Assembly: GCA_023412665.1 (NCBI GenBank)
Contig: JAEZCA010000035.1
Location: 136,633 to 200,632 of the forward strand
Direction: 5' to 3'
From: Bacillota bacterium
Lineage (GTDB): Bacteria; Bacillota; Clostridia; Acetivibrionales; DTU013
Length of the DNA stretch: 64,000 nt
The notes under the pieces were generated by a model. It worked only from the letters and a program-made list of their open reading frames with translations. It made no database searches and was not told the origin of the DNA. The translations under genes were made by a program, and so were the position numbers. Of the stretch, positions 8,512-33,303 are shown one piece after another (within the stretch, counting starts at the first letter, position 1; the number at the start of each line of letters is the position of its first letter).

Positions 8512-8547
8512 ATTAAAATAATTGATATGGACATTAATTATTTTAAT
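8512..8547 (+). promoter_or_regulatory. 12-bp inverted repeat (operator or 5'-UTR hairpin)
   Basis: ATTAAAATAATT - 12 nt - AATTATTTTAAT, located between the candidate promoter and the SD of the 8586 gene. Confidence 0.4.
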
Positions 8548-8585
8548 ATAAAGCATAATATTACTTTGATATAAAGGAGTCCATT

Positions 8586-8960: not shown

Positions 8961-9000
8961 ATCGAAATCATAAAATATAATTTATTGGGAGGATTTTAAA

Positions 9001-17913: not shown

Positions 17914-17929
17914 CCGGTTTTATTTTTTG
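17895..17929 (+). terminator. Intrinsic terminator overlapping the wecB stop
   Basis: AAAACCGGCT-GAATTTT-AGCCGGTTTT followed by ATTTTTT. Confidence 0.8.
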
Positions 17930-18788: not shown

Positions 18789-18827
18789 CCTCCATCAAAC
18801 ATCATCATTCGTTTATCATGCACTTAA

Positions 18828-19589
18828 TTAATAATTATACTCCTCCTGCCCGGGATTATAAAGGTTTAATTCGGAAAGACTGCACATTCCGTTCTCGATC
18901 GCGTTCTGTCTCAGTGTAAGGTACAGCTCGGCATGTGTGGCATCATCGTAAGGGCGCACAAATAAAACACCTATTCCCAGGCATAATGCACCGAGAAAAT
19001 ACCATCCCAGGAATGATAATTGAAGCACAAACATATCAAACTTATGGCCGCGGGTCATGTTATCACTGAGCTCGATAGCCCTTTTTGCCCCAATATTGGG
19101 GTTGTCGGCAAGGATATAAGGCACCATGCTGTACGCATACCCCTTTATTATGCCGGGAATTATCAGCAGCAATGACCACAGGAAAACATACAGATTCTTG
19201 AGAAACATCGTACCCACGATGCCCTTCCAATTGTAGCCATCAAACGCGTATCTGAAGCATTCCCTGTTATCAAAGTACTGTGCCGACTGGATAAAATACC
19301 TCCTGCCTCCTACCTGCAACGGATTCAGAAGCAATATCTGTACTGCTATTGCTACTACAAGCGCAACTGAAAATGCTCCTAAAATCAGCATTATTATACC
19401 GGCCATTTCAGAAGAACTAAAATATGAACCGGTGTAATCTGAGAAACTATCTGACCCCGATCTTCCGCCGCCACCGCCGCCTGATCCTCCCGTTGTCAAT
19501 CCAATAACCAAGCTTATGAGAAACGCCTTCCAATAGTTGCCTCTCAGGACATTTTTAGCTCTTTCCTTTAGTTCTCCCCTTGTCCACAT
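18828..19589 (-). CDS. DUF975 family membrane protein
   Basis: The N-terminus MWTRGELKERAKNVLRGNYWKAFL is typical of DUF975. A glycine-rich loop and 4-5 TM segments follow. Confidence 0.75.
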   Translation of the reverse strand: MWTRGELKERAKNVLRGNYWKAFLISLVIGLTTGGSGGGGGGRSGSDSFSDYTGSYFSSSEMAGIIMLILGAFSVALVVAIAVQILLLNPLQVGGRRYFIQSAQYFDNRECFRYAFDGYNWKGIVGTMFLKNLYVFLWSLLLIIPGIIKGYAYSMVPYILADNPNIGAKRAIELSDNMTRGHKFDMFVLQLSFLGWYFLGALCLGIGVLFVRPYDDATHAELYLTLRQNAIENGMCSLSELNLYNPGQEEYNY

Positions 19590-19713: not shown

Positions 19714-22700
19714 TCAACTCTTAGGCTGGATATAAGTCAAATCATATATATTTCCGGTTATGTCGATATCATCCACAACATACGTGGCAGTATTGCTGCC
19801 TTTATATGCCGTGACAGTCATGCGGTACTGCGGCCTCAGCCTGTTATTGCTCCAATCCTTGCTGGACGGCGCCAGCGGCAGATGGTATTCCCAGTGGGCA
19901 CGATTGTCGGAAACAGACACCGTCGAGTCCCCCGGGAATTTCACCTGATAACCCATGAAGTCAGCACTGTAATCATATGTGTGGCCGCTGGGATCGGTAT
20001 AGTACATGGACTCAAGCTCCGGACTGAATCGTACGGTAACTTTATCGGGACTGCCAATAGTAGTAATGTCAATATTGACACATTCCAATGAAAGGAACCT
20101 GTGGGGCTCTATAGTCATCTGCTTACCGAATATATCAGTTTGCCCTCTCCAGTGGTTCCAATAACCGATAATTTCAACATCGGTTATAGCCAGGTTTACC
20201 AGTTTGAATGACACATCCCTGCTTTGGGTACTACCATTGGGCGCAGCAGCAACAAATCTGGCAACATATTCCCCGTCCGGTATACCTGTGGGTATAGTCA
20301 GACTTCCTTTCCATTCCTTGATCCCTCCCTTGACTCCGCCATTACAGGTCAGATTATATGCTCTGGCATGTGCAGTACCCTGGAACAATGTCACATTGAC
20401 AGTATCAGCATATACAGATGTACTTGCAGCCACTTCAGAAGCTGCTCCGCCCGATACCTCCAAAGGCATGTTGGGCACTAATCCAAGCGGAGTAGCAACT
20501 CTTACAGAGAAACTTCTCACAGTGCTCCTGCCGTCATCACCTGTAGCAGATATTCTGATTTCATAGGACCTGTCAGGCAATGTTTCAGGTATCTGGTAAG
20601 TTATGTTCTTCCATACGATATCATTGCCTGTCCTGGTTCCTGTCTCATCACTAAAATTAACACTCTTCACCGGCGAAACTCTGGTGGCTCCATTGTATAA
20701 AGCCATCTCCAGCTTGACATCACCCGGGTATCGAGTCCACAGGTCATATGCCTCAAGCTTTTCTGACGCCGGGATGCCTGAAAGGGTGAATCGACTGTCC
20801 AATGCCCGAAGCGACGCATTGAACTGGATCGGAGGAGCCTCCTCAAGCGTGAAGTTCAATAGCATAGGTTTGGACCAGGTATTCTCCATATCTTTCACAT
20901 AATATTGAAGCTCGTATGTGCCGGGACTCAGCTTATCCGGAATAGTATATATCCACTCTCCTCCCGTCACCCTGTACATAATCTTTCTCTCGGTAATACC
21001 TTTATCTTCTCTGCTGTACTGGTGGTCTGGATCATATGAATTGTCCACCCATGTTGTGCGATATACCTTCTCCGTCTGATCGTAATCCCAGTCCAGAGTT
21101 GCGCTCGCCAGCGGCCTCCTGTGGGCATATATCTCTATGAATGGTGTCCCGGAGTAGCGAGAGAAGCTGTCGAATGCAGGGTCGTCTGAAGGATCGTCCT
21201 TTACTCTTCTATAAATAGTATATTTGCCCGGTTTATCAAGCTTGTCAACAAGTGTATCCACCCAGCCTTCATTTTCGGAGTATCCACTTACAGCAAATGC
21301 AGCAAGACCGTTTCCGTTATCATAGTATTCAGCATCATGGACATACAGCATCTTTCTTTCGACTATACCATCGTTTTCCTCGTCAAAATCAGCTACGCTG
21401 AGCCGCAAAGAATCCTCTCCCGCCAGAAGTGTGTATCTTTCTGCTTCGCCTGTATCGGCTATGATGTCCAGAGCCTCCTGCATCAATATATTCACATCCC
21501 GGTTGTTTTCTATGAAATGTTCATGACCCACCTGCTGCCTGATGTCTTCCGGACCTGCAAGTATTAGTTTTGCACCGCTTCTGTTCAATGCTGTACTAAG
21601 ATCATTCATATCATTTAATTTATCCTCAGTGATATAGATGATATATTTGTTTGATGTAGGCCTGAATGGATCTGTGTAAGGCTGCTTTACTTCTTTTCTG
21701 ATAGTGCCCTCATAAAAACCTGTGTAATCATCATGCCACACAAGATTAGGTACCCATAGCTGTACGGTCCTTGATACTTCACCACTATAATAGCCCGTGA
21801 ATGTTCTTGTTCGGGTATAGGTCTGTCCGATAACGCCCTTCCCTGAAGGCACACCACTATCGGAATCAGTGCTATAAGACACCTTATACAGTGTCCCCTT
21901 GAAGCCATCACTGTTGTAGCTCATACTCGGCTGGTCGGAAGCACTTGATGAAGTCAGCTGCCATCCTCCAGAAGTATAGGTATAGTTCGCCGTTGCCCAT
22001 CCACTTAATGTCCCTGTAACCGTCTTTCTTTCCACTTTACTGGTATAGGAGCCCTCATCAGTCTGGTACCGGTTATTGGAAACGCTTTTTCTTTTTAGTA
22101 CTCCATAATAGCCATTGCTTGTATACTCTGTGGTTTCGGGTGGAGTGCTGCTGCCTGTTCGTACGGTACTGCTTGCAGGCTGAGTGTACTCATATGTGTG
22201 GAGATCCCATGTATCCACATTTGATTGGACATTGTATGACCGCAGATAATTGTTGAACTCCAGCCTGTTATCCTTTATATACTTTACCTTCTCACTATCA
22301 AGAGATGAGTCCATCATTATAAAGGTATCGACCTGTGTCCTGTTCAATGGTATTTGAACATACAGCCCCGCCATGGGTTGTATATTGTCTACCAGGACCT
22401 CACGTTCTACCGTCCTGCTTACACGATCAGCATCAGTAATAAATTCTTGTATAGTGTCCTCTCCAAAGCTCTCTTCCACCGTATTAATGAATTTATATCT
22501 GCCAAGTCCTACGGGATGAAATTCGGGGAAGCCTTTGCTCCCGTCATAGGTCTTCAACAGCTTGTCATATGTACCGTCATTGTTGCTGTCATACCAAAGC
22601 TCGATAGTGTTTTTACTCACTATATCATTGTCTGTGCTGCAGGCATTGTAATTCCAGGCACTAATCGTCTCCAGCCTCGAGATGACAGAATTGTCGAGAT

Positions 22701-24531
22701 CGATCTCCAGTGCAGGCTCATAGTCGGGAAAAACCTCAAACCTCACTACATATGGGTCGGAAACCCGTCCCAGCGAGTTTTTTACAGTCAGCTCCACCTC
22801 ATAGGAGCCTGGAGTTTTGAACAATAGATCTTTTTGAGTGACGCTGATATCCTTCTTTTTTATTGATTCCTCAATACCGCTGACAGCCCTGAATTTCCAT
22901 GTATATGAGCTGATCGGGTATGCGCTGTTGACGATGTCGCAGCCTCCGATATTTGATATGTCGGTAACGGTCAGCTTTCGGTTCTGTTTATAGGTACCGG
23001 AAAGCCTGAACTGTGCTGTAGGCTTTGTGTCATATATATATGTCCACGCTGTATGGAACGCAGATTTTCCTTCGTTATCGGTATAAAAAATATCGATTTT
23101 CTTCAGCCCATCCTGACCAATACCAAATACATAATTGCCGCTGAAAAACTGTTCGTCATCAACCTCGGTGCCATTTATCAAGACCCTCCGGTCCTGTATG
23201 CCGCTCATATCCGTATTGTCACATGCGTCAAACTTAACGATATCAAAGCCCTTCTGAGGTATCACACATTTTGGCTCCATCAAATAGGGCACTTTTTTCT
23301 CAATCACGTATTCCTTTATAGAAAAATCCGCATTCCCGTCGCTGCTTCCCTCATCATACCTTTCATCAAAGTAAATACAGCGGGCTGTTGCAGTAAAATT
23401 GATGTCCTCTCCATTCAAAGCTTTGATTTGACCTTTGGTCATCAGGATCGTGAATGTAGTTTTCGCATAATTGTCATATATCTGGATATCATCTTTCCGG
23501 GCCTGCTCTCCATTTAATGTTATCTCCCAGTGGTCCCTGTCCTCTCTAGTGTAATAAACAGCCCTCGCCAGCTGGTCCTGCATGTGCTCCTCATCCTTGA
23601 GCCTGGCAATTACTTCGACCTTTACGTCAATTGTCTCTTTCTCAAATCCAGCTGGATTATCCATTCCGTAATCAATAAACTCCAATTCGCTTTCATTTTG
23701 TATATTGACGGAGACCTCTACCGGCGTATGCTCCTTTTGGTACTTCTTGATAGTGAAGCCCATATAGAAGAGCTTGCCTGCCTTATCAAACCTGAACATC
23801 CTGCCTTCCCCGTTGAACTTTGCCGAAGGCGCCGACTGTACATTGATGAAGTTATGAAAATCCCACGTCCCATCGGCCTTGCGCTCCGGTGCTGGATCTT
23901 TGAGCCCGGTGTCCATTACTCCATTTCTTATTTTAAAGTCAGTCATACCATTGTTGATCCACTCACGAGTTTTTTTATCGGTATCTGTAATGCAAGTGAT
24001 TGCTGATGCATTATATATACTTACTTTAGTTGCCGGTTCACCCTTAAACCTGGAGGATATATAGTTGCTATCCCAATAGTGATATATCCATGTTATGTCT
24101 TCAAGAGGAGTTATTCTTTTAACATCTAAAGGAAAGCATGTATTTGCATACAAGTTACCATCAATTGTGTATCCATCGTACCTATACTCACCTCGCTTAT
24201 ATCCAGCCTTTTTATAAAACCCAATGCCGGTATCATTAAGTGTCTCTTCTTTATAGTTCTTTCTATAACTATCATTTAGATTCGCCTGCTCCGGTGTACC
24301 ATACACAACAATTCCCTTACCATACCATATTCTATAATTAAAGGGTCTACCTTTAGCAATAGGTGTAACACCATATGGCAGTCCTGAAAGTTTTTCAAAT
24401 AAATCAGGATTATCAAAATAAGTCTCCCACTTGCAGCTGCTTTCATAATATCTAGAATCATTCTTTGCGCTGGTAATATTCGGAAGTAATATAGAGAAAA
24501 CTAATATACAGATGAAAAATTTCTTTTTCAT
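19714..24531 (-). CDS. 1605-aa secreted multidomain protein (Ig/PKD-like modules), last gene of the Tad-like operon; putative adhesin or pilus-associated protein
   Basis: Uninterrupted 4.8-kb ORF with a signal peptide (MKKKFFICILVFSILLPNITSA). A PKD-like segment is present (SYTWKF...GSYEVELTVKNSLGRVSDPYVVRFEV). The start lies 34 nt after the upstream gene. Confidence 0.85.
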   Translation of the reverse strand: MKKKFFICILVFSILLPNITSAKNDSRYYESSCKWETYFDNPDLFEKLSGLPYGVTPIAKGRPFNYRIWYGKGIVVYGTPEQANLNDSYRKNYKEETLNDTGIGFYKKAGYKRGEYRYDGYTIDGNLYANTCFPLDVKRITPLEDITWIYHYWDSNYISSRFKGEPATKVSIYNASAITCITDTDKKTREWINNGMTDFKIRNGVMDTGLKDPAPERKADGTWDFHNFINVQSAPSAKFNGEGRMFRFDKAGKLFYMGFTIKKYQKEHTPVEVSVNIQNESELEFIDYGMDNPAGFEKETIDVKVEVIARLKDEEHMQDQLARAVYYTREDRDHWEITLNGEQARKDDIQIYDNYAKTTFTILMTKGQIKALNGEDINFTATARCIYFDERYDEGSSDGNADFSIKEYVIEKKVPYLMEPKCVIPQKGFDIVKFDACDNTDMSGIQDRRVLINGTEVDDEQFFSGNYVFGIGQDGLKKIDIFYTDNEGKSAFHTAWTYIYDTKPTAQFRLSGTYKQNRKLTVTDISNIGGCDIVNSAYPISSYTWKFRAVSGIEESIKKKDISVTQKDLLFKTPGSYEVELTVKNSLGRVSDPYVVRFEVFPDYEPALEIDLDNSVISRLETISAWNYNACSTDNDIVSKNTIELWYDSNNDGTYDKLLKTYDGSKGFPEFHPVGLGRYKFINTVEESFGEDTIQEFITDADRVSRTVEREVLVDNIQPMAGLYVQIPLNRTQVDTFIMMDSSLDSEKVKYIKDNRLEFNNYLRSYNVQSNVDTWDLHTYEYTQPASSTVRTGSSTPPETTEYTSNGYYGVLKRKSVSNNRYQTDEGSYTSKVERKTVTGTLSGWATANYTYTSGGWQLTSSSASDQPSMSYNSDGFKGTLYKVSYSTDSDSGVPSGKGVIGQTYTRTRTFTGYYSGEVSRTVQLWVPNLVWHDDYTGFYEGTIRKEVKQPYTDPFRPTSNKYIIYITEDKLNDMNDLSTALNRSGAKLILAGPEDIRQQVGHEHFIENNRDVNILMQEALDIIADTGEAERYTLLAGEDSLRLSVADFDEENDGIVERKMLYVHDAEYYDNGNGLAAFAVSGYSENEGWVDTLVDKLDKPGKYTIYRRVKDDPSDDPAFDSFSRYSGTPFIEIYAHRRPLASATLDWDYDQTEKVYRTTWVDNSYDPDHQYSREDKGITERKIMYRVTGGEWIYTIPDKLSPGTYELQYYVKDMENTWSKPMLLNFTLEEAPPIQFNASLRALDSRFTLSGIPASEKLEAYDLWTRYPGDVKLEMALYNGATRVSPVKSVNFSDETGTRTGNDIVWKNITYQIPETLPDRSYEIRISATGDDGRSTVRSFSVRVATPLGLVPNMPLEVSGGAASEVAASTSVYADTVNVTLFQGTAHARAYNLTCNGGVKGGIKEWKGSLTIPTGIPDGEYVARFVAAAPNGSTQSRDVSFKLVNLAITDVEIIGYWNHWRGQTDIFGKQMTIEPHRFLSLECVNIDITTIGSPDKVTVRFSPELESMYYTDPSGHTYDYSADFMGYQVKFPGDSTVSVSDNRAHWEYHLPLAPSSKDWSNNRLRPQYRMTVTAYKGSNTATYVVDDIDITGNIYDLTYIQPKS

Positions 24532-24565
24532 AATAGCACTAACCTTTCAATATGATAGATATAAA

Positions 24566-25846
24566 CTATTTAAGACTATTAATAGAAAGTGTGAACCCGT
24601 CATCCCCACCAACCTTATGGAAGAACATAAGACGGCCATTGTAAGTAATTTCATCAATATGATGTTCCTGATCATTCGTTATTGCATAATTAAGATATCT
24701 GTCAAACTCTTCCATAGCTTTATCGGTATCATTGCTAAACCAGAACTTGAACATTTCATAAATAACTTCTCTATGCATCGATTTTACAGCTTGAGCATTA
24801 TAAAGAGTTATATGATATGGGTTATCCATAAGTCGATTATCGTCTAAAGTAGTAATACTTATATACATCTGTTTATTTAATACGCTATTCTCTTCAAGTT
24901 TTTCCTTGCTCTCATAGAAAGTATAGTATATAACATGACCTGATTCACTAAATCCAGAAACAACAAATCCCTTACTCTTTTGTCCTACATTCTTAAATGC
25001 ATTAGCAGCATCAATAACTTCCTTCTTTGGGGGCGGCCATACAGTAGTTGACGTACCATCATAGTTTACGCACGTAAAAACCTCATCCGCTGCCGGTGTA
25101 AAAGGCACACGGGAGCCGTCATTCAAATACCTGATCATGACAGTTGCCGCTTCAGCTCTGGTCAGAGTGCCGGCAGGCCTGAAATAGCCTTCCGATCCAC
25201 GGATGAGGCCGATTTCGTATGACTGCAGAACAAACTGCTTGTTTATATCCTTTATCGCCGTATAATCTTTGATTTTTGACCGCACCAGATTGTCCGGGGT
25301 ATTATATGGATCATTGTAAGGGAACTCCTCTTTGAGCAGTGCCGCCTTTACAATGATTCTCGCAGCTTCCTCCCTGGTAATAGGCCGTTTGTAATCCGAA
25401 AACTCATTTATTGAAATCAGCTTCTGTCCAACAGCAATATCAATATAATTCTGAGCCCAGTATTTCGTATTCTCACCCGGTGCATATCCCATAGACCTGA
25501 CAACCATCTTAATATATTGATCGACCTGTACCGGATCATTTGGATGAAAATTACCCCCATAGCCCGTGATTATATAGATATACGAGAGCATTCCGACTTC
25601 TTTACGGCTCCAGTGCGAACCCATATCCCCATATAAATATAGAGCATTTTCAATATCGGTGTCCACCAGCGCAGCCAGCTTCTCCTGTAACGGCTTCACC
25701 CTGTATGCGGCCTCATTTTCTTCGGCGGCAAATGACTCTGCTGACACGAAGAATACGAATAAGGCAAGGAATGCTGTTGCCAGAATAATTTCAAGGCACT
25801 TCCTGACCGCTGTTTTTCCATACCATACATATTTTCTATCCGGCAT
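24566..25846 (-). CDS. Membrane-anchored protein with SLH-like repeats and an unknown C-terminal domain
   Basis: AAGGAGG SD and an N-terminal TM (ILATAFLALFVFFV). SLH-like segments are present (SHWSRKEV..., ITREEAARIIVKAAL, FRPAGTLTRAEAATVMIRYL). Confidence 0.8.
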   Translation of the reverse strand: MPDRKYVWYGKTAVRKCLEIILATAFLALFVFFVSAESFAAEENEAAYRVKPLQEKLAALVDTDIENALYLYGDMGSHWSRKEVGMLSYIYIITGYGGNFHPNDPVQVDQYIKMVVRSMGYAPGENTKYWAQNYIDIAVGQKLISINEFSDYKRPITREEAARIIVKAALLKEEFPYNDPYNTPDNLVRSKIKDYTAIKDINKQFVLQSYEIGLIRGSEGYFRPAGTLTRAEAATVMIRYLNDGSRVPFTPAADEVFTCVNYDGTSTTVWPPPKKEVIDAANAFKNVGQKSKGFVVSGFSESGHVIYYTFYESKEKLEENSVLNKQMYISITTLDDNRLMDNPYHITLYNAQAVKSMHREVIYEMFKFWFSNDTDKAMEEFDRYLNYAITNDQEHHIDEITYNGRLMFFHKVGGDDGFTLSINSLK

Positions 25847-25884
25847 AGCAAGTCCTCCTTATTTTGAATCATTTATACAGTCGG

Positions 25885-27477
25885 CTAACTGCATAAATAA
25901 ATGAATTCACTGTTTGCAAACTGAAGGCTGTCGTTATTCTTAAGCTCAACTTCCTTATTACTATCAATCCGTGCATCGTTAACAAATGTTCCATTGATAG
26001 AATTCAAATCCTTGACAAAGCAGGAGCCATTCCTGCATATCAGCTCCGCATGCAGCTTCCCCACAGCATTGTTGAGCAGTACATGGTCAACATGGCCCTG
26101 AAGCCTGCCTATAATGATCTCATCCCGATCGATCACAATATCCCGGTCATTGGCAAACCTGCCTCTGCTTTTAAGCATGTGGACCTTTTTGGTATTATTT
26201 CCAAGTACCTCTGTCTTCTGTATATACCTCAATGCAACATCATCCTGGGCTTCTCTGACCGCTTGATCTATATTTTCCGCATCAGTACCCGCATCTGCTC
26301 TTTTCAGCGTTTCCCTGTTGATTGCCGTTATGGTTCCTTCACGATAATATGCAGGCTCTTCAGTTAGTACAGCATTTGCATTAACTGCACCATTCACACA
26401 ATTCTTATTACAATCAGATGCTTTGTCTTTCTCCTGCAAAGCACTTTCTGTTAGTTTCTTCAGCCGTTGATATGCTTTCGATGCTGAAGCCTCTTTACGA
26501 GGCAACTGTCTGCCGTTCACGGTCCACTCCGGCTCATCCTCTGGCGCTGATTGCTGAGAACTACTGTCACTACACGTCCTAAGCAGCTTCAATACCTGAA
26601 GCTTTCTGAAAACGAGCACATCGATGGCTATAACGATCATAAGCACTGCAGCATAGGTCGCTGTCCGATTTTCTCCGATATTATCAAGAAATCCTCGGCA
26701 CATGAATATAATACCGCCCATAGCAAATTGCAAAAGAACTGCAGGCACTACTGATGTCAGAGATATTTTTATATCTTTATTCTCTTTATTCTCCTTATCT
26801 TCCTGTTTTTCCTCTATTTTATCTTTTTTACAACTATTTTTAAGTGTTTTTTCGCAAGAATCGTGCTCCGGCAGTGGGGCGGGCGCTCCCCCGGTTTCTT
26901 CACCATACAGCAGTTCATTGATTAGTATCATGAAGCTCTTGAGGTTGAACATCTCACTCTTTATCTCTGACAAAATACGCTGTACAAGATTTCCGCCAAA
27001 GCCTGCTTCATTTATATGCTGCATGAGCACATCAGAAACCAAAGTCTGAAGAGTCCCTCTGCAATGACCTCCTGATTCGGCCGGTATATAGATCAGCCTG
27101 ACCTCCATCGTATCCGGCTCAATATAAACATACTCAGGGTCAAAAAGGAAATTGGACGAAGACAGCAGATACCCTGCAGAATTATTGATGTTGGAGGACA
27201 GATTCAAAAACAGTCTGAGAAATTCCACACGGTTAAGCTTATGTCTTTTAAAGTACATCAGCAGGGGGATCCTTGAGGTTATGTTGTAGTAAAAATGATA
27301 GGCCCCTTCAGATTTTACTGCTTCTACAGGCACAACATACCTTATATCATTGTTTTCAAGCATTTTTGCCTGAAACTCCAGGATCCTGGCTCTGCATTCA
27401 ATGACAAGGAAGCTTGATGCCGAGCTGCTTTCATACCTGAATTTCAATTCCTTCGAATTTTCACCGTCACCGGACAT
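25885..27477 (-). CDS. FHA-domain membrane protein (N-terminal globular domain, 2 TM, C-terminal FHA)
   Basis: Start ATG 27477 lies behind a GGAGGAG SD. The C-terminal FHA signature is IIIGRLQGHVDHVLLNNAVGKLHAELICRNGSCFVKDLNSINGTFVN. Two central hydrophobic helices are present. Confidence 0.85.
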   Translation of the reverse strand: MSGDGENSKELKFRYESSSASSFLVIECRARILEFQAKMLENNDIRYVVPVEAVKSEGAYHFYYNITSRIPLLMYFKRHKLNRVEFLRLFLNLSSNINNSAGYLLSSSNFLFDPEYVYIEPDTMEVRLIYIPAESGGHCRGTLQTLVSDVLMQHINEAGFGGNLVQRILSEIKSEMFNLKSFMILINELLYGEETGGAPAPLPEHDSCEKTLKNSCKKDKIEEKQEDKENKENKDIKISLTSVVPAVLLQFAMGGIIFMCRGFLDNIGENRTATYAAVLMIVIAIDVLVFRKLQVLKLLRTCSDSSSQQSAPEDEPEWTVNGRQLPRKEASASKAYQRLKKLTESALQEKDKASDCNKNCVNGAVNANAVLTEEPAYYREGTITAINRETLKRADAGTDAENIDQAVREAQDDVALRYIQKTEVLGNNTKKVHMLKSRGRFANDRDIVIDRDEIIIGRLQGHVDHVLLNNAVGKLHAELICRNGSCFVKDLNSINGTFVNDARIDSNKEVELKNNDSLQFANSEFIYLCS

Positions 27478-27551
27478 ATTCCCTACTCCTCCGACACAAT
27501 ATCTCATTAGCAGCTGCCCCGCCACTGCCTTTAGCTGAACAATTGAAAATA

Positions 27552-27770
27552 TTATTTGATGATCTTGTTATTTGCTCTGATACTGCCGCTGTTGATATCA
27601 TTTATAATCGCATCATCAGCAAAGACACTTTGCATGATATTCGTAACAAATTTGATAATGGCATCCCTGAATATTAGAGCTATCCCGACAAGTACAGCAA
27701 TTATTACGACAATTTCCACTGTCCCCAGTCCATCTTCCTCGCTAAGAAAGTTTTTAATAAAACGTTTCAC
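27552..27770 (-). CDS. flp: Flp-family type IVb pilin
   Basis: GTG start behind a GGAGGTG SD. The 72-aa product has a charged leader, then G/LGTVE plus the hydrophobic helix IVVIIAVLVGIALIF (Flp G/XXXXE-type motif). Confidence 0.8.
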   Translation of the reverse strand: MKRFIKNFLSEEDGLGTVEIVVIIAVLVGIALIFRDAIIKFVTNIMQSVFADDAIINDINSGSIRANNKIIK

Positions 27771-27788
27771 AAAATCACCTCCATCCCC

Positions 27789-28649
27789 CTATATATTCCT
27801 CAATGCAAGCACAGCTGGCATTCCAACAATGAGCAGTATCGCTGCGAACATCAGCATCATAGGCAAAAGCAGTTTAGTAGAGGCCTCTTCCCCAAACCTT
27901 TTAGCAGTCGATTTTCTAAGCTCCCAGCATTCATTGGCAAAAAGCCTCAAAACAGGTACAAGCTCATCATTACCCTTTCTCATATTTTGCAGGACTACAG
28001 ATACAAACCGGGTAATAAGCGGCACATGACACCGTTGAGCAAACTCCTCAAACGCCTTGTATTCAGGTATCCCCGACCTTATATCCTGTACTGCGGCTCC
28101 AAGCTCGATATATAGCGGAGTCTGTCTTGATGTATCAGAAACTGTCTTTTCCCATGCTCTGGAGACCGTCATTCCTGCATTGACCAGAAGTGTGAGCTTG
28201 TTGACAAAATCAGGGAAGTCCAGCTGTATGGATTGCCTTCTTTTCTTCACTTTCTCCGACAGCTCTCTGTCGCTGAATACAAAAATGCCCACTTGCAGTA
28301 ATAGGCAAAATACTGCATATCCAACATCCGGTTTTGTCATAGTTCCGACAAATAAAATAAAAGCCAGAGATAAAAGCATCAAAGATATCTTACTGCCCCA
28401 ATGAACACGCAGCACTGTCAATGCCTTCTTATAACCGTACAGTTCAGCTGCCGCCATCAGCAGCTTCCTGTCATAGCCGGTGTTATAGCCGTATTTGAAG
28501 GTATCAAGGATACATAGCCCAATTGGAAGGATCCCTCTCATCGGAAATTCTTTTTTATCCAGCCTTGCAATAATCTCCGTGTACCTTCTATGTGAGGCAG
28601 AATACAGTAAGGCAAGGATTATGATATATACCGCCAGAACCATAATCAT
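27789..28649 (-). CDS. tadC: TadC-like pilus assembly membrane protein (T2SS-F domain)
   Basis: Polytopic protein with the GspF/TadC-like topology, located between tadB and flp. GGAGGAG SD. Confidence 0.8.
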   Translation of the reverse strand: MIMVLAVYIIILALLYSASHRRYTEIIARLDKKEFPMRGILPIGLCILDTFKYGYNTGYDRKLLMAAAELYGYKKALTVLRVHWGSKISLMLLSLAFILFVGTMTKPDVGYAVFCLLLQVGIFVFSDRELSEKVKKRRQSIQLDFPDFVNKLTLLVNAGMTVSRAWEKTVSDTSRQTPLYIELGAAVQDIRSGIPEYKAFEEFAQRCHVPLITRFVSVVLQNMRKGNDELVPVLRLFANECWELRKSTAKRFGEEASTKLLLPMMLMFAAILLIVGMPAVLALRNI

Positions 28650-28676
28650 AACAAACTCTCCTCCGAAATATTCCCG

Positions 28677-29426
28677 CTAGAGCTTAATATCACTTACTCT
28701 TGATGAAATAAACCACGCAGCAGCAATCAATATGATCGAAATACTCATCGTAAGCCTTCCTGCAACTGTGCTGAAAACAGGGTATATGTACTCCGGCGCG
28801 CTCACAGAAAGAAGCAGTATCATTAGTATTGGCACCGCATTGAGCACCTTCTGCTCAAATCTGCGTTCTGTCAGCATCATATCGACTTCCTGCCCCACCT
28901 CTATCCTGTCGCTGATAATAGCCGATGTATTCCTTATTATCTCGGCTATGTTTCCGCCGGACCTTTTGCTGATGTTCATGACGCTGACAAAGTTGTCTAC
29001 ATCCTCAAGACAAGCCCGACCTGCAAAATCAGATAAAGCATGTTCGATCGTCTCATTCATCTCCAGCCTGCTTATGATCCTTTTAATCTCTACCAGTATA
29101 AATGTTGAAGGCTCAGGGTACAGCACCGATAAATCCTTCAGTGCATCCTTGAACGCATACTCGATCGTTTTGCCTGCAGATACCGATGATGCCAGTGAAT
29201 ACAGCATATCCTTGAACTGGATGTTCAACTCCTTTTTGCGCCGCTTGATGATTTCCTTCTTTTTTATTGCGGGGTATAAGAGTGCCAGTGGTGTCAAAAT
29301 CACAGAAAAAACGACACTCCTGTAAAATACATAGGCAAGAGCAAAAATAAATATACCTGCAATTGCCGTATAGAATAGCCTCTCTCTGTTGCTCATTTCA
29401 TACGTATCATAACTCTGTGTCATCAT
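28677..29426 (-). CDS. tadB: TadB-like pilus assembly membrane protein (T2SS-F domain)
   Basis: ATGA start/stop overlap with cpaF (ATG 29426; the track GTG at 29435 is also possible). Paralogous architecture to tadC. Confidence 0.8.
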   Translation of the reverse strand: MMTQSYDTYEMSNRERLFYTAIAGIFIFALAYVFYRSVVFSVILTPLALLYPAIKKKEIIKRRKKELNIQFKDMLYSLASSVSAGKTIEYAFKDALKDLSVLYPEPSTFILVEIKRIISRLEMNETIEHALSDFAGRACLEDVDNFVSVMNISKRSGGNIAEIIRNTSAIISDRIEVGQEVDMMLTERRFEQKVLNAVPILMILLLSVSAPEYIYPVFSTVAGRLTMSISIILIAAAWFISSRVSDIKL

Positions 29427-30796
29427 GCACCACACAATCCGCAGCTTATGCCTGCCATCCTGAGCTTTACAGTATTGACGAGCATGTTGCCGGTCCTCTT
29501 TAGGCTTCCGTTTACCAGTCCGTCATCATTCTGTCCGCTCTCATCGTGCCTGCTCTCATTCAGTCCGTTCTTCCCGCGCCTGGCCAAATCCTGCCCGTTT
29601 TCCTCGTGTCCGTTCTCCTCAAATAAATAAAGAGGATTCAGATGTATCACTCCGTCCGCATATCCGGATATTTCGCTTATCTCTAGGACCCGTCTGGTCT
29701 TGTCCCTTAATCTCGAAAGGTGGATAACTATGTCGATTGCTGAAGCTATCTGCTGACGCACAGCCTCCAGTGGCAGCGGCGCCGCTGATATAACCATTGT
29801 TTCAAGACGTTTGAGCATGTCGGCAGCGGAATTTGCATGACCTGTCGACAGGGATCCGTCATGACCGGTATTCATCGCCTGCAGCATATCAAGAGCCTCC
29901 TCGCCACGCACCTCACCGACTATTATCCTCTCCGGCCTCATCCTGAGTGATGTTTTGATAAGGTCCCGAATAGATATCCTGCCCCGTCCCTCGCTGTTGG
30001 CATTTCTGGCTTCCAGCCGGACTATGTTATCCACTCCTTTTATCTGAAGCTCAGCCGAATCCTCTATGGTGATGATTCTCTCATCAGGAGGGATCCTTGC
30101 AGAAAGGGCATTAAGGAAGGTTGTCTTGCCGCTCCCGGTGCCCCCGCAGATAAATATGTTGTATTTTGCCCTGACAAGACAGCTTAGAGCTTCTTCGGCA
30201 TCAGCGCTCAAAGAACCCAGATCAACGAGCTGCTCCAAAGTCATGGGACTGTCCGGAAACTTTCTGATCGTCATTATCGGTCCGTTCAATGCCACTGGCT
30301 TTAAAACAACATTCACCCTTGAACCATCCGGCAATGCGAAGTCAACTATGGGAGAAGCCTCATTGACTATCCTGTTTGTGCGGGAAACGATATTGTGTAT
30401 CACATCCTCCAATCTTTCATAGCTGTCAAATGTCTTTTCAAGCCTGTATATGTGTCCTCCTCGTTCTATGAAGAGCTTGTCCGGTCCATTGATCATGACT
30501 TCGGTTATGCTTCTGTCCTCAATGACAGGCTGCAGTATATCAAGTCTCCTCATGGAGTTGAACACAAGGTCGGCCAGCTCACGCTTTTGTGCAATATTCA
30601 GATATGCTCTTGATGATTTGCGAAAAACTGCTTCTGTGATAGTATCCATCAGTTCTTCATCAGAAACCTCTCTGGACCTGTCAAGACCTTGCGTTATCTC
30701 CGATCTGATATCCTCGGCAAGCGTCCTGCAGTCATCACCCCGTCCACAGATACCCAATGCCTGTATTGCACCGGCAGCATCATGCACTGTACTCAC
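29423..30796 (-). CDS. cpaF: CpaF/TadA-type secretion ATPase
   Basis: Walker A GGTGSGKTTFLNAL, IITIEDSAEL, Walker B RMRPERIIVGEVRG and His box TGHDGSLSTGHANSA. There is an unusual ~70-aa charged/Gly-rich C-terminal tail. Confidence 0.92.
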   Translation of the reverse strand: MSTVHDAAGAIQALGICGRGDDCRTLAEDIRSEITQGLDRSREVSDEELMDTITEAVFRKSSRAYLNIAQKRELADLVFNSMRRLDILQPVIEDRSITEVMINGPDKLFIERGGHIYRLEKTFDSYERLEDVIHNIVSRTNRIVNEASPIVDFALPDGSRVNVVLKPVALNGPIMTIRKFPDSPMTLEQLVDLGSLSADAEEALSCLVRAKYNIFICGGTGSGKTTFLNALSARIPPDERIITIEDSAELQIKGVDNIVRLEARNANSEGRGRISIRDLIKTSLRMRPERIIVGEVRGEEALDMLQAMNTGHDGSLSTGHANSAADMLKRLETMVISAAPLPLEAVRQQIASAIDIVIHLSRLRDKTRRVLEISEISGYADGVIHLNPLYLFEENGHEENGQDLARRGKNGLNESRHDESGQNDDGLVNGSLKRTGNMLVNTVKLRMAGISCGLCGA

Positions 30797-31976
30797 CTCC
30801 GTCCCACAAAGCCGCTGCTTCGATCCCCGAAGCCGACACCGCTCCTCTATAGGCTGCCCATTCCCCTGAGGCTGCTGCCGGACTTTTTCCGGGAAGGATA
30901 TGATTGACTACCCTGTTCAGTTCAGCAAGAAACGCCGGATTTTCCACAGGCTTGATGAAAGCTCTGCTGTCAGATGATACTGAATGGTCCGATATCTCCA
31001 CAATAGGCTTGTATCCAAAAATACTTCCACCTGCTTTTTGTCTCTTTGAGAAATTTAGTATAGGTACGATCCTGCCAATAAGGTCGGCTCTCAGTTTGTT
31101 CTCGATCATCTCCAGACCCTTGCTGAATTTTTCGATACTGCTCTCCAGCTTGAAATCCGGTGTCAGCACCAGCAAAACGGCATCGGAATACTTCAGCACG
31201 GAGGAATTTCTTTCATTCAGGCCGGTTGGGAGGTCAATAAAGACGACATTATAGACGGAGCTTTTCCTGAACTCAAAAATAAGCCTTGAAATATCCTGAT
31301 CTGTGAGCTCATTCATATCAAGTATGTTCTCAGCCGGCCTGAAAAAATGCACGCCGGTCCCTGTGTCGGCGCATCCGGCTGCCTCCAGCTTGAGCCACAG
31401 ATTTGGGTTGTTGCCTTTGAGCTGATATATCACATTGGAAAAGCTTTGATTGGAGTCTCCATGAAAGAACATCCCTGTGGACGGTATATCTTCAAGATTC
31501 AAATAGAACGCACTCATGCCCCTGCCGGCACACAATATGCTGCAGCCTGCCGCAATACTACTTTTGCCTGTCCCTCCTGCCGGCGATACGACACTGATTA
31601 CGCGTGTACCTTCATTGCCGGATACCCGACAGTCCTTCTTGCTTCCAAGGGAGTAAAGCCTGATCACCTCGGAGATCAGCCTGTCCATATGCTGATATTT
31701 GTTTACAGCTTCCAGTCCTGCCTGAGCAAATGATTCATTCTCAGACAGTATCAGTATTGTTTCAGGATTCCCCGCACCGATCATTTCCTTGTACATTTTG
31801 CTGCTGACGAGCAGTATATCAATTTTATGAAATTCACCAAGATAGGTATTGAGGTGATCTGCGGATGAAAAAGAAGACAATTCAAACCGCTTTGGATGAT
31901 ATGTTATCAAATATTTCTCAAAATTCTGTAAATATTCTGCATCATAATCTGCTATAACAAGACTAAGCCTCCCCAA
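30780..31976 (-). CDS. CpaE/TadZ-like ParA/MinD-family ATPase with degenerate N-terminal receiver-like domain
   Basis: Deviant Walker A VVSPAGGTGKSSIA. The N-terminal ~120 aa are receiver-shaped (LVIADYDAEY...). TTG start behind a GGGGGGAG SD. 17-nt overlap with cpaF. Confidence 0.8.
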   Translation of the reverse strand: MGRLSLVIADYDAEYLQNFEKYLITYHPKRFELSSFSSADHLNTYLGEFHKIDILLVSSKMYKEMIGAGNPETILILSENESFAQAGLEAVNKYQHMDRLISEVIRLYSLGSKKDCRVSGNEGTRVISVVSPAGGTGKSSIAAGCSILCAGRGMSAFYLNLEDIPSTGMFFHGDSNQSFSNVIYQLKGNNPNLWLKLEAAGCADTGTGVHFFRPAENILDMNELTDQDISRLIFEFRKSSVYNVVFIDLPTGLNERNSSVLKYSDAVLLVLTPDFKLESSIEKFSKGLEMIENKLRADLIGRIVPILNFSKRQKAGGSIFGYKPIVEISDHSVSSDSRAFIKPVENPAFLAELNRVVNHILPGKSPAAASGEWAAYRGAVSASGIEAAALWDGGEYSA

Positions 31977-32045
31977 AACTGCTCCCCCCTGTACTTACAT
32001 TTACAACAATGCCCATAAAATAATGTAAGAATATGGTTGTGCAAT

Positions 32046-32074
32046 TATTATATGGAAAAGCTAGTTCTCTGTCA
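32046..32074 (-). promoter_or_regulatory. Consensus sigma-A promoter of the tad operon
   Basis: On the minus strand: TTGACA (32074-32069), a 17-nt spacer, then TATAAT (32051-32046). Confidence 0.75.
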
Positions 32075-32137
32075 ATTCCTATTTTTCAATTTATTTCCAT
32101 TTTATTTGGGGATACCTACAGAATACTACAGCAAGCA

Positions 32138-32749
32138 CTACCTTTCATACTTGCTGAAAAGCTCATCCTGCTGCTTTTTAACAAAGGTTTTGATATGATT
32201 AAAGACGACAGGCCCGTTATGCCTTATTTTCAGACCGTACTCATAATAGCCGTCATACTCGACCTTCCTTACTATCTCACCCGTAAGCGAGAGGATATCC
32301 CTGGTCAGGTATATGTCCATTATCAGCCTCAGACCTTTGAAATGTGATTCCTTGGAGTATATCAAAAGACCATAGTCGCTTATATCCTTTACCAGAGCAA
32401 AGCTTTTTTTATTTCCCAGCGCTTCAGCTACCCTGTAGTCAGCATAGAGTGAAACGGGAAATCGCTCGTATGACCTCATTCTGCTGCCTTCATCATATTC
32501 ATCCTCGGAATACACCAACATTTCGTCTTTCTTATTGAATTCCAGGATTCTGCCGCCCCTTATGTATACTCTTGAGTCCGTTTCATAGCATGAAACTATG
32601 GGGTCACCTGCAAGAAACATGGATTTCATACACTCCTTCGGAAGCTTGACCACTATAGTCCGCCCCTTGACATCGTTTACAATGGTGCTGAACAGATTGA
32701 TCATGGAATAGTGCCTTATTGTAACAACAGTACCTTCTGTCAGTTCCAT
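32138..32749 (-). CDS. PilZ-domain protein (YcgR-like c-di-GMP receptor)
   Basis: PilZ motifs RSYER (RxxxR) and DISDYG (DxSxxG). Start is at MELTEGT (ATG 32749). Confidence 0.8.
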   Translation of the reverse strand: MELTEGTVVTIRHYSMINLFSTIVNDVKGRTIVVKLPKECMKSMFLAGDPIVSCYETDSRVYIRGGRILEFNKKDEMLVYSEDEYDEGSRMRSYERFPVSLYADYRVAEALGNKKSFALVKDISDYGLLIYSKESHFKGLRLIMDIYLTRDILSLTGEIVRKVEYDGYYEYGLKIRHNGPVVFNHIKTFVKKQQDELFSKYER

Positions 32750-33026
32750 GCCACACCCCCGCGAACTAGTATATACATAATTATACAATATCTGTGTCTC
32801 ACATGAAAGATTTCTATCAATTTTTCCTGAAAATCACCTGCTTTTAGTACTCCAGGCCATATTCTGCAACTGATACCTTATGCTATTTTACTGTCACCGA
32901 CTTGAACCGGTATTAATATAATGTATTGACAGCTGGTATGCAAGTAACAATTTTGACCTAAGAAGAATAAATTGAATTAGCGATAAAAATTTATGTTAAC
33001 TCAATGGTTGAAAGGAGGCCTCGACA

Positions 33027-33131
33027 ATGTCAGAAAGAGGATGCGGTAATTTCTTAAATGACAATTGCACCATTTTGTTCTTTATTATTCTGTTCCTGCT
33101 GCTGTTCTTCGATAACAGGCATTTTTGCTGA
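33027..33131 (+). CDS. Small hydrophobic peptide P1 (34 aa), not in the ORF track
   Basis: An AAAGGAGG SD lies 7 nt upstream. Product: MSERGCGNFLNDNCTILFFIILFLLLFFDNRHFC. It is followed by a strong terminator and is a paralog of P2. Confidence 0.65.
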   Translation: MSERGCGNFLNDNCTILFFIILFLLLFFDNRHFC

Positions 33132-33174
33132 GCAGCGGTATTGAAGAAAACCGGCAATTAGTAAGTATGTCGTA

Positions 33175-33205
33175 GAAACCACCCTTTAAGGGTGGTTTTG
33201 CTTTG
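33175..33205 (+). terminator. Intrinsic terminator after P1
   Basis: GAAACCACCC-TTTAA-GGGTGGTTTT followed by GCTTTG. Confidence 0.8.
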
Positions 33206-33303
33206 TGGTCGAAAATGCTGTTTGCCAGTAACACATACCTGTGGGTGTGAATATGATATAGAAGGCAGCATGGTCAAACATGCAGATAAAGGAGGTAAAG
33301 CAA

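Follow-up and report, generated by a model that had tools for sequence, protein, structure and literature searches.

How type IV filaments pass through, and make use of, a thick Gram-positive wall and S-layer is poorly understood, and to our knowledge no clostridial Tad system has been the subject of experiments. The locus analysed here lies in a 64,000-nucleotide stretch of a Bacillota (Acetivibrionales) genome that we call the window. There a recognizable set of Tad pilus genes continues into three distal genes to which the literature that we searched assigns no role in Tad systems. We asked what these genes encode, whether they belong with the pilus genes and what they might contribute to the pilus.

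A Tad/Flp operon that extends into three further genes

The locus is a genuine Tad/Flp pilus operon of an S-layer-bearing Clostridium relative, and all nine minus-strand open reading frames lie at the coordinates initially given for them. The features of the region are as follows.

32138..32788, minus strand: PilZ-domain protein (Pfam PilZ, E 3.5e-7), upstream of the operon promoter
32047..32075, minus strand: sigma-70-type promoter TTGACA-17-TATAAT (12/12 match), 5′ of tadZ
30780..31976, minus strand: TadZ/CpaE-like ParA-family ATPase with an atypical receiver domain (PDB 3fkq, E 2.6e-28)
29423..30796, minus strand: CpaF/TadA pilus motor ATPase (T2SSE, E 3e-59; C. crescentus CpaF 8rkd, E 9e-93)
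28677..29435, minus strand: TadB platform protein (T2SSF, E 1.8e-6)
27789..28649, minus strand: TadC platform protein (T2SSF, E 1e-10)
27552..27770, minus strand: Flp-like major pilin (Flp1_like, E 8e-18, above cut-off)
25885..27477, minus strand: gene 7, putative membrane hub protein (Pfam DUF6382, E 1.7e-28, and FHA, E 5e-14)
24566..25846, minus strand: gene 8, Sec-exported SLH wall-anchor protein (SLH, E 7.9e-11)
19714..24531, minus strand: gene 9, 1605-aa Sec-exported surface protein, the giant (NF047340 Athe_2463, E 1.9e-44)
18828-19589, minus strand: DUF975 membrane protein (Pfam), downstream of the giant
17946-18788, minus strand: rhomboid-like membrane protein with a C-terminal zinc ribbon (Pfam, weak match)
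17895..17921, both strands: bidirectional terminator-like hairpin with 12-pair and 10-pair stems, a T run after each

From a promoter that separates the end of the PilZ gene from the start codon of tadZ, genes for TadZ, CpaF, TadB, TadC and the Flp-like pilin, then genes 7 to 9, follow one another in a tightly packed string. The consensus motif of this promoter was as the preliminary description had it, although its coordinates were one base off (32046-32074 rather than 32047-32075); read on the minus strand, 32075..32047 is the only perfect site within 17.5-34.5 kb, where by our own estimate about 0.01 would be expected by chance. The overlaps and gaps from which operon-like spacing had been proposed were all reproduced: tadZ and cpaF overlap by 17 nt, cpaF and tadB share an ATGA overlap provided that tadB starts at its fourth codon (29426), and gaps of 27 nt (tadB-tadC), 18 nt (tadC-flp), 74 nt (flp-FHA gene), 38 nt (FHA gene-SLH gene) and 34 nt (SLH gene-giant) follow. 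The 74-nt gap holds only with an FHA gene start at M17 (27477), which has a GGAGGAG ribosome-binding site and for which independent gene calls give the same 530-aa product.

No gap within the string holds a minus-strand terminator-like site, and the hairpin at 17921..17895, the strongest of its kind on the minus strand, is the strongest candidate stop for the string. Spacing, ribosome-binding sites and terminator-free gaps together suggest co-transcription. The DUF975 and rhomboid-like genes (17946..19589) may be part of the same transcript; among the compared loci, which we number with the prefix L, they are found in L003, L084 and L087-L098 and are absent from L001, a synteny confined to close relatives. 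No c-di-GMP riboswitch or other Rfam element was found in 17-35 kb.

A recognizable core with unlinked parts

Searches of Pfam, NCBIfam and PDB sequences, on which all domain assignments rest, bore out the core first proposed, namely a CpaF ATPase, two T2SSF proteins and a Flp pilin with a G/LGTVE site. The components that mark a Tad/Flp (type IVc) system are thus present: a CpaF/TadA ATPase, TadB with TadC, a Flp-type pilin and a TadZ/CpaE ATPase. In the last of these the TadZ-like_ARD match (E 3.6e-4) is below the Pfam cut-off; its PDB match, 3fkq (deposited title ‘NtrC-like two-domain protein’), is what we take to be the structure of E. rectale TadZ. TadB is 71% identical to its counterpart in L003. 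The pilin cleavage site, DG/LGTVE, has Glu at +5 and no Tyr at +6, as in the ‘Flp-like’ class of PMC3244431.

The PilZ protein, which most likely starts at M14 (32749) rather than at the start of its open reading frame, carries the c-di-GMP-binding motifs RSYER (RxxxR) and DISDYG (DxSxxG), and by these motifs is likely to be a c-di-GMP receptor; its gene is syntenic in L003, L084 and L087-L098.

The Tad/Flp pili of Aggregatibacter, Caulobacter and Bifidobacterium breve have the same TadZ, CpaF/TadA, TadB, TadC and Flp-type pilin (Glu +5) in the same order, whereas the window locus lacks TadE/TadF/TadG, RcpC and a secretin and has three extra conserved genes. In B. breve, tadV is reportedly likewise unlinked. 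The reported absence of TadV and of TadE/F/G held among the window ORFs run against Pfam and in a scan for class III signals: no match to Peptidase_A24, TadE or Tad turned up in the nine products of the operon, in any multi-pass membrane ORF or in the large ORFs nearby, and a heuristic six-frame scan of the window for class III signal peptides left flp as the sole plausible pilin. The further suggestion that the distal trio occupies the positions of the minor pilins did not survive comparison with L001, a distant relative in which TadG/DUF5702- and TadE-like genes lie between flp and the FHA-SLH-giant trio. Sequence comparison therefore indicates a window lineage without minor pilins in the locus, and a trio that does not replace them.

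TadE/TadG-type minor pilins are encoded in the relatives L001, L006, L085 and L110. Across the 20-kb neighbourhoods with Pfam annotation, a Peptidase_A24 gene was found in L006 only, so that an unlinked peptidase is common in relatives and no peculiarity of the window locus; the Flp-like pilin would presumably be processed by a prepilin peptidase whose gene lies in another part of the genome. We rejected the rhomboid-like protein (17946-18788) as a stand-in peptidase: its match (E 7e-4) falls short of cut-off strength, it is of the wrong catalytic class and it is syntenic only in close relatives. In those Tad systems that have been studied, assembly depends on minor pilins, and since the window operon encodes none, its pilus may rely on unlinked genes or may not form.

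A membrane protein of a type VII family follows the pilin gene

Gene 7 comprises, in ORF numbering, a DUF6382 domain (aa 17-215), a two-helix hairpin (~aa 258-312), a variable linker and an FHA domain (aa 470-536). The hairpin, with two hydrophobic helices joined by a 7-residue loop and positive charges on its flanks, is predicted from sequence to bring the chain back to the cytoplasm, so that the C-terminus is the FHA domain and there is no extracellular C-terminal domain. DUF6382 at the N-terminus, a pair of transmembrane helices and an FHA domain at the C-terminus make up the architecture of TsfJ, and by sequence gene 7 belongs to the TsfJ/TseJ family, which entered the literature in 2024 as part of type VII secretion variants (PMC11217815) and has so far been described only in type VII secretion loci. 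The statement in the preliminary description that the distal genes have no assigned role in described Tad systems stands for Tad, for which we found none in the literature searched; the FHA protein nevertheless has a precedent in the type VII variants (PMC11217815). Among the loci compared, a type VII context was seen only for a distant homologue in L002, and the neighbours of gene 7 in the window are all Tad genes; the occurrence of DUF6382-FHA proteins in type VII loci as well (L002; PMC11217815) means that the family is not Tad-specific.

Against T7SSe and T7SSf, in which Garrett and colleagues described TsfJ/TseJ in 2024 (PMC11217815), gene 7 thus shares DUF6382, the two transmembrane helices and the FHA domain. 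TsfJ in T7SSf is accompanied by a TadZ-like ATPase, TsfV, as gene 7 is by its own TadZ-like ATPase, and the PP2C of L006 is the counterpart of T7SSf TsfF (PMC11217815). The differences lie in the surroundings: Tad genes adjoin gene 7, and genes for an EssC-type ATPase, a WXG100 protein and a YukD-like protein are all missing from the operon.

The AF2 model of the DUF6382 domain of gene 7 (pLDDT 85, pTM 0.79) had as its top Foldseek match 8cba, the N-terminal domain of pIP501 TraF (E 1.7e-6), and the other top matches listed were protein kinases; there were 350 matches at E <= 0.001, with TM-scores of only 0.46-0.52. The Gly-rich loop, HRD and DFG motifs are absent from the invariant and near-invariant DUF6382-FHA columns in alignments of 22 and 80 sequences, and the DUF6382 domain models as an EssB/YukC/TraF-like pseudokinase. 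TraF is a pseudokinase homologous to EssB/YukC, and the YukC pseudokinase binds the FHA domain of YukB and acts as an interaction hub (PMC13037476). With EssB/YukC of T7SSb and with pIP501 TraF, gene 7 would share a membrane-anchored cytoplasmic pseudokinase domain, as modelled, and where the T7SSb pseudokinase has an FHA domain as its partner (PMC13037476), gene 7 carries a cytoplasmic FHA domain of its own. EssB/YukC/TraF proteins have a single transmembrane helix and an extracellular C-terminal domain, in contrast to the hairpin and cytoplasmic FHA domain of gene 7, and they are encoded in type VII and type IV secretion loci rather than in a type IV filament locus.

Control by phospho-threonine had been suggested for this protein. 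In that reading gene 7 is a phospho-threonine-dependent switch, through whose FHA domain a Ser/Thr kinase and a phosphatase encoded elsewhere control pilus assembly. Relatives of gene 7 adjoin a PP2C phosphatase (L006) or a Ser/Thr kinase (L002), a kinase gene heads the L086 Tad operon, and the Tad-like Kil system of Myxococcus is also accompanied by FHA proteins (PMC8460266). Within the FHA domain of gene 7 itself, the GR, H, S and N of the signature are kept (G473-R474, H492, S509 and N511), but the Ser of ‘S-R-x-H’ is G489, and at this position, that of the Ser in GarA ‘VSRRHA’, Gly is present in >=90% of 80 aligned gene 7 homologues. Neither the window operon nor its close relatives encode a kinase or phosphatase, and in T7SSb the EssC FHA domains do not need to bind phospho-threonine in order to function (PMC11217815). 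We therefore regard such a switch as doubtful. The FHA position equivalent to Thr106 was also considered as aberrant and dismissed, canonical bacterial FHA domains having Leu or Ile there too.

A wall-anchored SLH protein and a 1605-residue surface protein

The label ‘SLH-like’ first given to gene 8 proved too cautious, as genuine SLH repeats are present: two stretches match, with ITREE and LTRAE motifs, the first repeat is degenerate, and B. anthracis Sap SLH is matched at E 5.5e-5. Other SLH proteins are encoded in the window, indicating that the host uses SLH anchoring. The C-terminal domain of gene 8 (aa 248-426) is predicted with high confidence (AF2 pLDDT 95.8), and its model has no match among solved structures in the PDB at E <= 0.001.

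At its N-terminus the giant carries an Athe_2463 domain (aa 64-260; 152 bits against an NF047340 cut-off of 36), and its conserved core consists of Ig-like beta-sandwich domains. The namesake of the domain is a secreted C. bescii protein induced on xylan (PMC5865380). All giants tested have this domain, with those of L001, L003 and L086 above the cut-off and that of L085 below it. A word-based search with the N-terminal 391 aa returned only three proteins; the family was reached through a metagenome scan and a full HMMER scan, the latter giving 334 clusters at 50% identity. Giants are collinear over ~1600 aa at 27-44% identity, 29 family members have Ig-like matches only in Pfam, and no solved relative was found by sequence or profile search of the PDB. 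Conservation is highest in the core (aa 500-1300) and both ends are more variable, so that a pattern of variable tip and conserved anchor, which we had considered, does not apply.

Pfam and NCBIfam searches found only SLH and Ig-like domains in genes 8 and 9, with no secretin, SAF/RcpC, vWA or class III signal features, and no pseudopilin or peptidase domain is hidden in any of the three distal ORFs or in the 29 giants examined with Pfam. Sec-type signal peptides are visible directly in the sequences of genes 8 and 9. These signals bear on an earlier proposal that the Tad machine exports or displays the giant, a role in which it would resemble the pseudopilus of type II secretion. The giant does lie at the operon end, and a pilus machine without minor pilins has no other obvious role; against this, both distal proteins have classical Sec signals, the homologous loci have no secretin or outer-membrane step, and the host, which as a member of the Acetivibrionales (Bacillota) we take to be monoderm, needs only Sec export followed by SLH anchoring. 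Export by the pilus machine is thus unnecessary, and we consider this role highly improbable.

The SLH-giant pair accompanies several Tad-like layouts

Gene neighbourhoods, the comparison proposed at the outset, indicate that the three distal genes are not random passengers: in related genomes the trio travels with tad genes. Homologues of gene 7 with DUF6382 and FHA domains directly follow flp or minor-pilin genes at 28-80% identity in L001, L003, L084, L087-L098, L103 and L108, and another lies in a different Tad layout, L006, with TadE genes, two A24 peptidases and PP2C. A scan of a genome collection with the FHA alignment used generic FHA peptide patterns, and most of its >=80 loci are unrelated FHA proteins; among the matches listed, the informative ones were L004, L006, L029 and L035. 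Wherever upstream sequence is available, with the single exception of L107, the SLH gene is immediately 5′ of the giant, and the pair stands at the 3′ end of at least five Tad-like layouts, those of the window type, L001, L086, L112 and L085/L110/L111. A good many of the loci that show this linkage are closely related to the window, and by our own grouping they represent only ~9 independent lineages. The genomes of the host organisms are mainly metagenome assemblies, from biogas, bioreactor and fermentation samples.

Two exceptions make this linkage strong but not obligatory: L099 has the pair without any Tad gene in 8.6 kb upstream, and L107 has a 27%-identical giant with neither SLH partner nor tad genes. 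A giant family found away from tad genes, together with the absence of TadV and TadE/F/G from the window ORFs examined, would fit a reduced and possibly non-functional tad remnant, its minor pilins and peptidase lost, with unrelated surface and membrane genes behind it. This is very unlikely in view of the intact ORFs with good ribosome-binding sites, the conservation of the nine-gene order at 37-80% protein identity across many assemblies and the association of the pair with tad-like genes in five layouts.

The main rival to the reading that we prefer, a pilus with a surface partner that is probably an adhesin, starts from the same constancy. The SLH protein and giant could themselves belong to the pilus machine, at the level of wall and S-layer. 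As a collar, conduit or stator they would lead the filament across peptidoglycan and S-layer, a monoderm counterpart in role of RcpC and the RcpA secretin of diderms. The pair stays with Tad-type machines while the rest of the operon differs among the five layouts, a behaviour that suits a machine part better than an adhesin standing on its own, and the giant is of fixed length with a conserved, collinear core. In diderm tad loci, rcpA and rcpB hold the position after rcpC, and in L086 the pair lies directly 3′ of an RcpC-like gene. RcpC has been described as a periplasmic conduit (PMC12307814). However, other Clostridial Tad loci lack the pair (L006), the pair also occurs without nearby tad genes (L099), there is no sign of ring formation, and searches with genes 8 and 9 found no resemblance to a secretin or to a solved structure. 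We consider a wall part possible, and the likeliest of the alternatives, but clearly behind an adhesive partner.

Discussion

Our preferred reading, in which our confidence is evenly poised, is of a Tad pilus that has a pseudokinase-FHA hub in the inner membrane and, anchored to the wall, a surface partner that is probably an adhesin. TadZ, CpaF, TadB and TadC would assemble the Flp-like pilin into the type IVc (Tad/Flp) pilus of an Acetivibrionales-like Clostridium, and the upstream PilZ protein would probably couple the system to c-di-GMP. Gene 7 would be the inner-membrane hub, its cytoplasmic pseudokinase and FHA domains joined by the two-helix hairpin, and may scaffold or gate the TadZ-CpaF-TadB/C platform; we infer this role by analogy with type VII secretion, in which the pseudokinase YukC organizes the membrane complex and binds the ATPase YukB through the FHA domains of the latter. 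Since the phosphate-contacting Ser is missing, such scaffolding would probably proceed without classical phospho-threonine recognition.

Genes 8 and 9 would form an extracellular pair exported by Sec, in which the SLH protein binds a wall polymer and its C-terminal domain may hold the 1605-aa Ig-rich giant at the cell surface. This pair, of which we found no published description in the literature searched, would serve the pilus as its own surface partner, most likely in the form of an adhesin that makes fast the contacts initiated by the pilus. PilY1/PilC of type IVa pili and the tapirins of Caldicellulosiruptor are large, Sec-exported, non-pilin adhesins that are encoded in pilus loci and mediate attachment. 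The giant is likewise large, Sec-exported and encoded beside pilus genes; it differs in having no sequence or domain similarity to PilY1/PilC or tapirins, and those have no SLH partner. Its conserved core and variable ends are compatible with a structural as much as with an adhesive role.

The Kil system of Myxococcus xanthus (PMC8460266, PMC12075869) is likewise a Tad-derived machine with FHA proteins and extra extracellular parts, but it belongs to a diderm, has a secretin, carries its FHA domain fused to the ATPase, and has minor-pilin tip complexes as its extras; the pseudokinase and the SLH-giant pair, both present in the window locus, are absent from Kil. A broader proposal, which we put forward as speculative and rather unlikely, is that the SLH-giant pair is the envelope-level part of Tad systems in S-layer monoderms, an exit or anchoring structure in wall and S-layer with the role of RcpC and the secretin, and that one EssB-like membrane hub serves three unrelated Gram-positive nanomachines, those of type VII secretion, of conjugative type IV secretion and of type IV filaments.

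The locus offers two candidates for further study: a surface pair that stays with Tad-type machines across five or more operon designs, and a membrane pseudokinase-FHA protein that would link Tad loci to recently described components of type VII secretion and to type IV secretion. Attachment, whether to plant biomass or from cell to cell, might plausibly be of importance to growth of the hosts in biogas, bioreactor and fermentation settings.

A Tad operon with conserved accessory genes

All nine minus-strand open reading frames (ORFs) of the preliminary description were found where it had placed them, and its reading of a Tad/Flp operon followed by three distal genes was borne out by the ORFs, promoter, spacing and domain matches.

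Operon genes (coordinates, strand, product)
32138-32788, minus: PilZ protein (PilZ domain, E = 3.5e-7)
30780-31976, minus: tadZ, TadZ homolog (PDB 3fkq, which we take to be the E. rectale TadZ structure; E = 2.6e-28)
29423-30796, minus: cpaF, CpaF ATPase (T2SSE, E = 3e-59; C. crescentus CpaF, E = 9e-93)
28677-29435, minus: tadB, T2SSF platform protein
27789-28649, minus: tadC, T2SSF platform protein
27552-27770, minus: flp, 72-aa Flp1_like pilin (E = 8e-18; site DG/LGTVE)
25885-27477, minus: gene 7, DUF6382-FHA protein
24566-25846, minus: gene 8, SLH protein
19714-24531, minus: gene 9, 1605-aa giant; its sole strong match is the NCBIfam 'Athe_2463 domain' (aa 64-260, E = 1.9e-44)

A perfect TTGACA-17-TATAAT promoter (32075..32047) lies between the PilZ gene and tadZ, and is the sole 12/12 site in the 17 kb scanned. 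The overlaps and gaps reported earlier hold when gene 7 is started at its seventeenth codon, which has a GGAGGAG ribosome-binding site; independent gene calls gave the same 530-aa product. No terminator-like site was found on the minus strand in any gap within the gene string, and the strongest hairpin (17921..17895) falls past two more genes. These encode, 3' of the giant, a DUF975 protein (18828-19589) and a weak rhomboid-like membrane protein with a Cys/His-rich C-terminal tail (17946-18788; E = 7e-4, under cut-off); synteny of the two extends no further than close relatives, and between the giant and the hairpin there is likewise no terminator-like site in the gaps.

The PilZ protein carries RxxxR and DxSxxG motifs and is syntenic in closer relatives, making c-di-GMP input through it plausible. 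No riboswitch was found. On the plus strand at 33107-33207, an Rfam match to the Pseudomonas rnk leader falls short of threshold (29.5 bits, gathering score 55; E = 0.17); a terminator-like hairpin at 33175-33199 overlaps it, and the match is most likely due to chance.

No peptidase or minor pilin was found among the window ORFs tested

Tests for a Tad core were positive at the window locus, while those for a TadV-type peptidase and for TadE/F/G minor pilins, whose absence had been noted from the sequence, came back negative within the window: Pfam searches of the operon products, every multi-pass membrane ORF and the large neighbouring ORFs gave no match to Peptidase_A24, TadE or Tad, and a six-frame scan of the window for class III signal peptides returned flp alone as a plausible pilin. 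Among annotated 20-kb neighbourhoods of relatives, an A24 peptidase occurs only in L006, from a Clostridia metagenome-assembled genome (SKGK01000205.1).

The same L006 locus, of Tad type and with two A24 peptidases, a DUF6382-FHA protein and a PP2C phosphatase, also encodes a 360-aa protein (L006:5035-6117) that joins a TadE-like pilin N-terminus (E = 1.4e-4) to a C-terminal CDI toxin EC869-like nuclease domain (E = 1.6e-12). Its product looks like a toxin-bearing minor pilin, and the fusion suggests that a Gram-positive Tad pilus might perform contact-dependent killing.

Gene 7 places a type VII secretion family in a Tad locus

Searches with gene 7 recovered 80 homologs, nearly all combining DUF6382 with FHA. 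Around a 38%-identical relative (L003) the whole locus is syntenic. In the Clostridia genome locus L001, where the FHA protein is 28% identical, the order is tadZ-cpaF-tadB-tadC-flp followed by three extra genes, then the FHA protein and proteins of 415 aa and 1987 aa; two of the three extra genes encode a TadG/DUF5702-like protein and a TadE-like minor pilin, and the last two products are homologs of the window SLH protein and giant. In L006 the FHA protein sits amid a TadZ-like gene, three TadE-type genes, the peptidases and the phosphatase.

Residues 17-225 of gene 7 gave a confident AlphaFold model (pLDDT 85, pTM 0.79) with 350 Foldseek matches at E <= 0.001; the best is the N-terminal domain of the pIP501 conjugation protein TraF (8cba, E = 1.7e-6), whose published strand and helix order the model follows (PMC13037476), and the remaining top matches listed are protein kinases. 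Because the Gly-rich loop, HRD and DFG motifs are all missing from the conserved columns of the family alignments, we regard the modelled DUF6382 domain as a predicted pseudokinase. TraF was described in 2026 as a pseudokinase and structural homolog of EssB/YukC of type VII secretion, where the pseudokinase serves as an interaction hub and has the FHA domains of the YukB ATPase as binding partners (PMC13037476). Gene 7 has this fold in common with EssB, YukC and TraF, but lacks their design of a single helix and an extracellular domain.

The DUF6382-FHA architecture itself is that of TseJ and TsfJ, components of the T7SSe and T7SSf variants of type VII secretion; TsfJ, which has a two-helix topology as does gene 7, occurs together with a PP2C and with TsfV, an ATPase whose receiver domain is TadZ-like (PMC11217815). 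This was the only work on DUF6382 that our literature search found, and Tad loci are not among the settings it gives for the family. The published setting is type VII; gene 7 belongs to this known family but sits in a Tad locus, a context new for it. FHA proteins also surround the Tad-like Kil machine of Myxococcus, but they are proteins other than gene 7 (PMC8460266). A 20%-identical homolog in Cytobacillus sp. (L002:793-13322) has a type VII secretion locus around it, in which EssC bears an FHA domain and two WXG100 genes occur; a Ser/Thr kinase gene is adjacent on the opposite strand. The TadZ-like ATPase, DUF6382-FHA protein and PP2C found together in the Tad locus L006:226-9651 correspond to TsfV, TsfJ and TsfF of T7SSf (PMC11217815), and the trio may constitute a portable module, for regulation or localisation, with no specificity for type VII.

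The gene 7 FHA domain retains its signature Gly-Arg, His, Ser and Asn. Phospho-threonine-dependent control had been proposed on first reading; in its classical form it now appears doubtful, since at least 90% of the family have Gly at the position aligned with the Ser of the GarA 'VSRRHA' motif and the window operon has no kinase or phosphatase gene.

The SLH protein and the giant form a conserved pair

Gene 8 (72 homologs detected) comprises a signal peptide, an SLH region in which ITREE and LTRAE motifs occur, and a C-terminal domain, conserved and some 180 residues long, whose predicted model (pLDDT 95.8) had no PDB match at E <= 0.001. Clustered at 50% identity, the relatives of the giant number 334, and 126 of these reach E <= 1e-30; top matches are mostly 1500-2000 aa and collinear with it, and giants of different lineages share 27-44% pairwise identity over nearly their full length. 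Conservation is greatest in the core (residues 500-1300), both ends being more variable. The Athe_2463 domain is present in all giants tested, that of L085 scoring under the curated cut-off, and beyond it only PKD, Big_13, Y_Y_Y and DUF4625-type beta-sandwiches can be recognised; a 49-sequence profile found no PDB relatives. The domain's namesake is secreted in C. bescii and induced on xylan and xylose, according to a secretome study that was the only literature found on the domain. A search on the SLH-giant pair returned no paper, and the reviews and surveys of Gram-positive Tad loci that we found mention neither FHA nor S-layer components.

Two further window proteins bear on the host's surface.

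Other SLH proteins in the window (coordinates, strand, product)
53455-57144, minus: 1229-aa surface protein, five fibronectin type III (fn3) domains and three canonical SLH repeats
34119-35846, plus: SLH-transglutaminase-like secreted protein, weak SLH repeat match and transglutaminase-like core; divergent from the PilZ gene

Since both are encoded here, the host is predicted to anchor surface proteins through SLH domains, the 1229-aa protein being a further large example. The transglutaminase-like neighbour is kept in L003 and L084, and short N-terminal matches at the locus edge suggest it in L087, L096 and L098. Same-cluster proteins are annotated to Acetivibrionales or Bacillota metagenome-assembled genomes, and loci nearly identical to this one were recovered from metagenomes of biogas, bioreactor and fermentation origin.

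The pair follows several Tad-type machines

We assessed linkage in 23 metagenome loci recovered through the giant N-terminus, together with loci recovered through the SLH protein. Wherever upstream sequence exists the SLH gene directly precedes the giant, with one exception (L107), and the pair stands at the end of at least five differing operon designs.

Genes preceding the SLH-giant pair
Window type: tadZ-cpaF-tadB-tadC-flp-FHA
L001: window-like order, minor pilins added after flp
L086: kinase-cpaF-tadB-tadC, three small proteins, RcpC-like protein
L112: SAF protein, CpaE-like ATPase, 510-aa T2SSE ATPase, two membrane proteins, three small hydrophobic proteins
L085, L110, L111: cluster with a 590-aa T2SSE ATPase

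Many of the linked loci are closely related to the window, which keeps the number of independent lineages small; as we group them, Tad linkage holds in about seven of nine. At L099 the pair is present, but the 8.6 kb upstream contain housekeeping genes only and the contig ends just after the giant; L107 has a 27%-identical giant with neither SLH partner nor tad genes. Directly upstream of the latter are two tandem bacterial serpin genes (L107:5723-8195), and a TraG-like gene lies near the L112 locus.

In two of L085, L110 and L111, a second Flp/TadE/TadG/RcpC/CpaE cluster lies just downstream. The first cluster, conserved among these loci (about 1000-9900 in each), combines a T2SSE ATPase of 582-590 aa, sharing just 24% identity with CpaF, with an SSB gene, small proteins that are hydrophobic at the N-terminus, and several membrane proteins that lack annotation. 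It may be an undescribed type IV filament subtype in its own right, or belong to a mobile element.

A proposed role for the accessory genes

Gene content, folds and linkage are what the analysis shows; the contacts and roles below we infer. The Tad motor and platform, an ordinary core, would polymerise the Flp-like pilin once an unlinked peptidase had cleaved it. Gene 7 would act as a membrane hub of the platform, like YukC or TraF; its own FHA domain may be the binding partner of the pseudokinase, or may recruit TadZ or CpaF. The SLH region of gene 8 would bind wall polymer while its C-terminal domain held the giant, the pair serving as a dedicated surface partner of the pilus. We favour an adhesin that fixes contacts made by the pilus. 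The main rival is a structure for exit through, or anchoring in, the wall or S-layer; in its favour are the retention of the pair while the machine varies and its placement after the RcpC-like gene in L086. The machine itself is not new in kind; the value of the locus lies in a conserved, testable accessory set.
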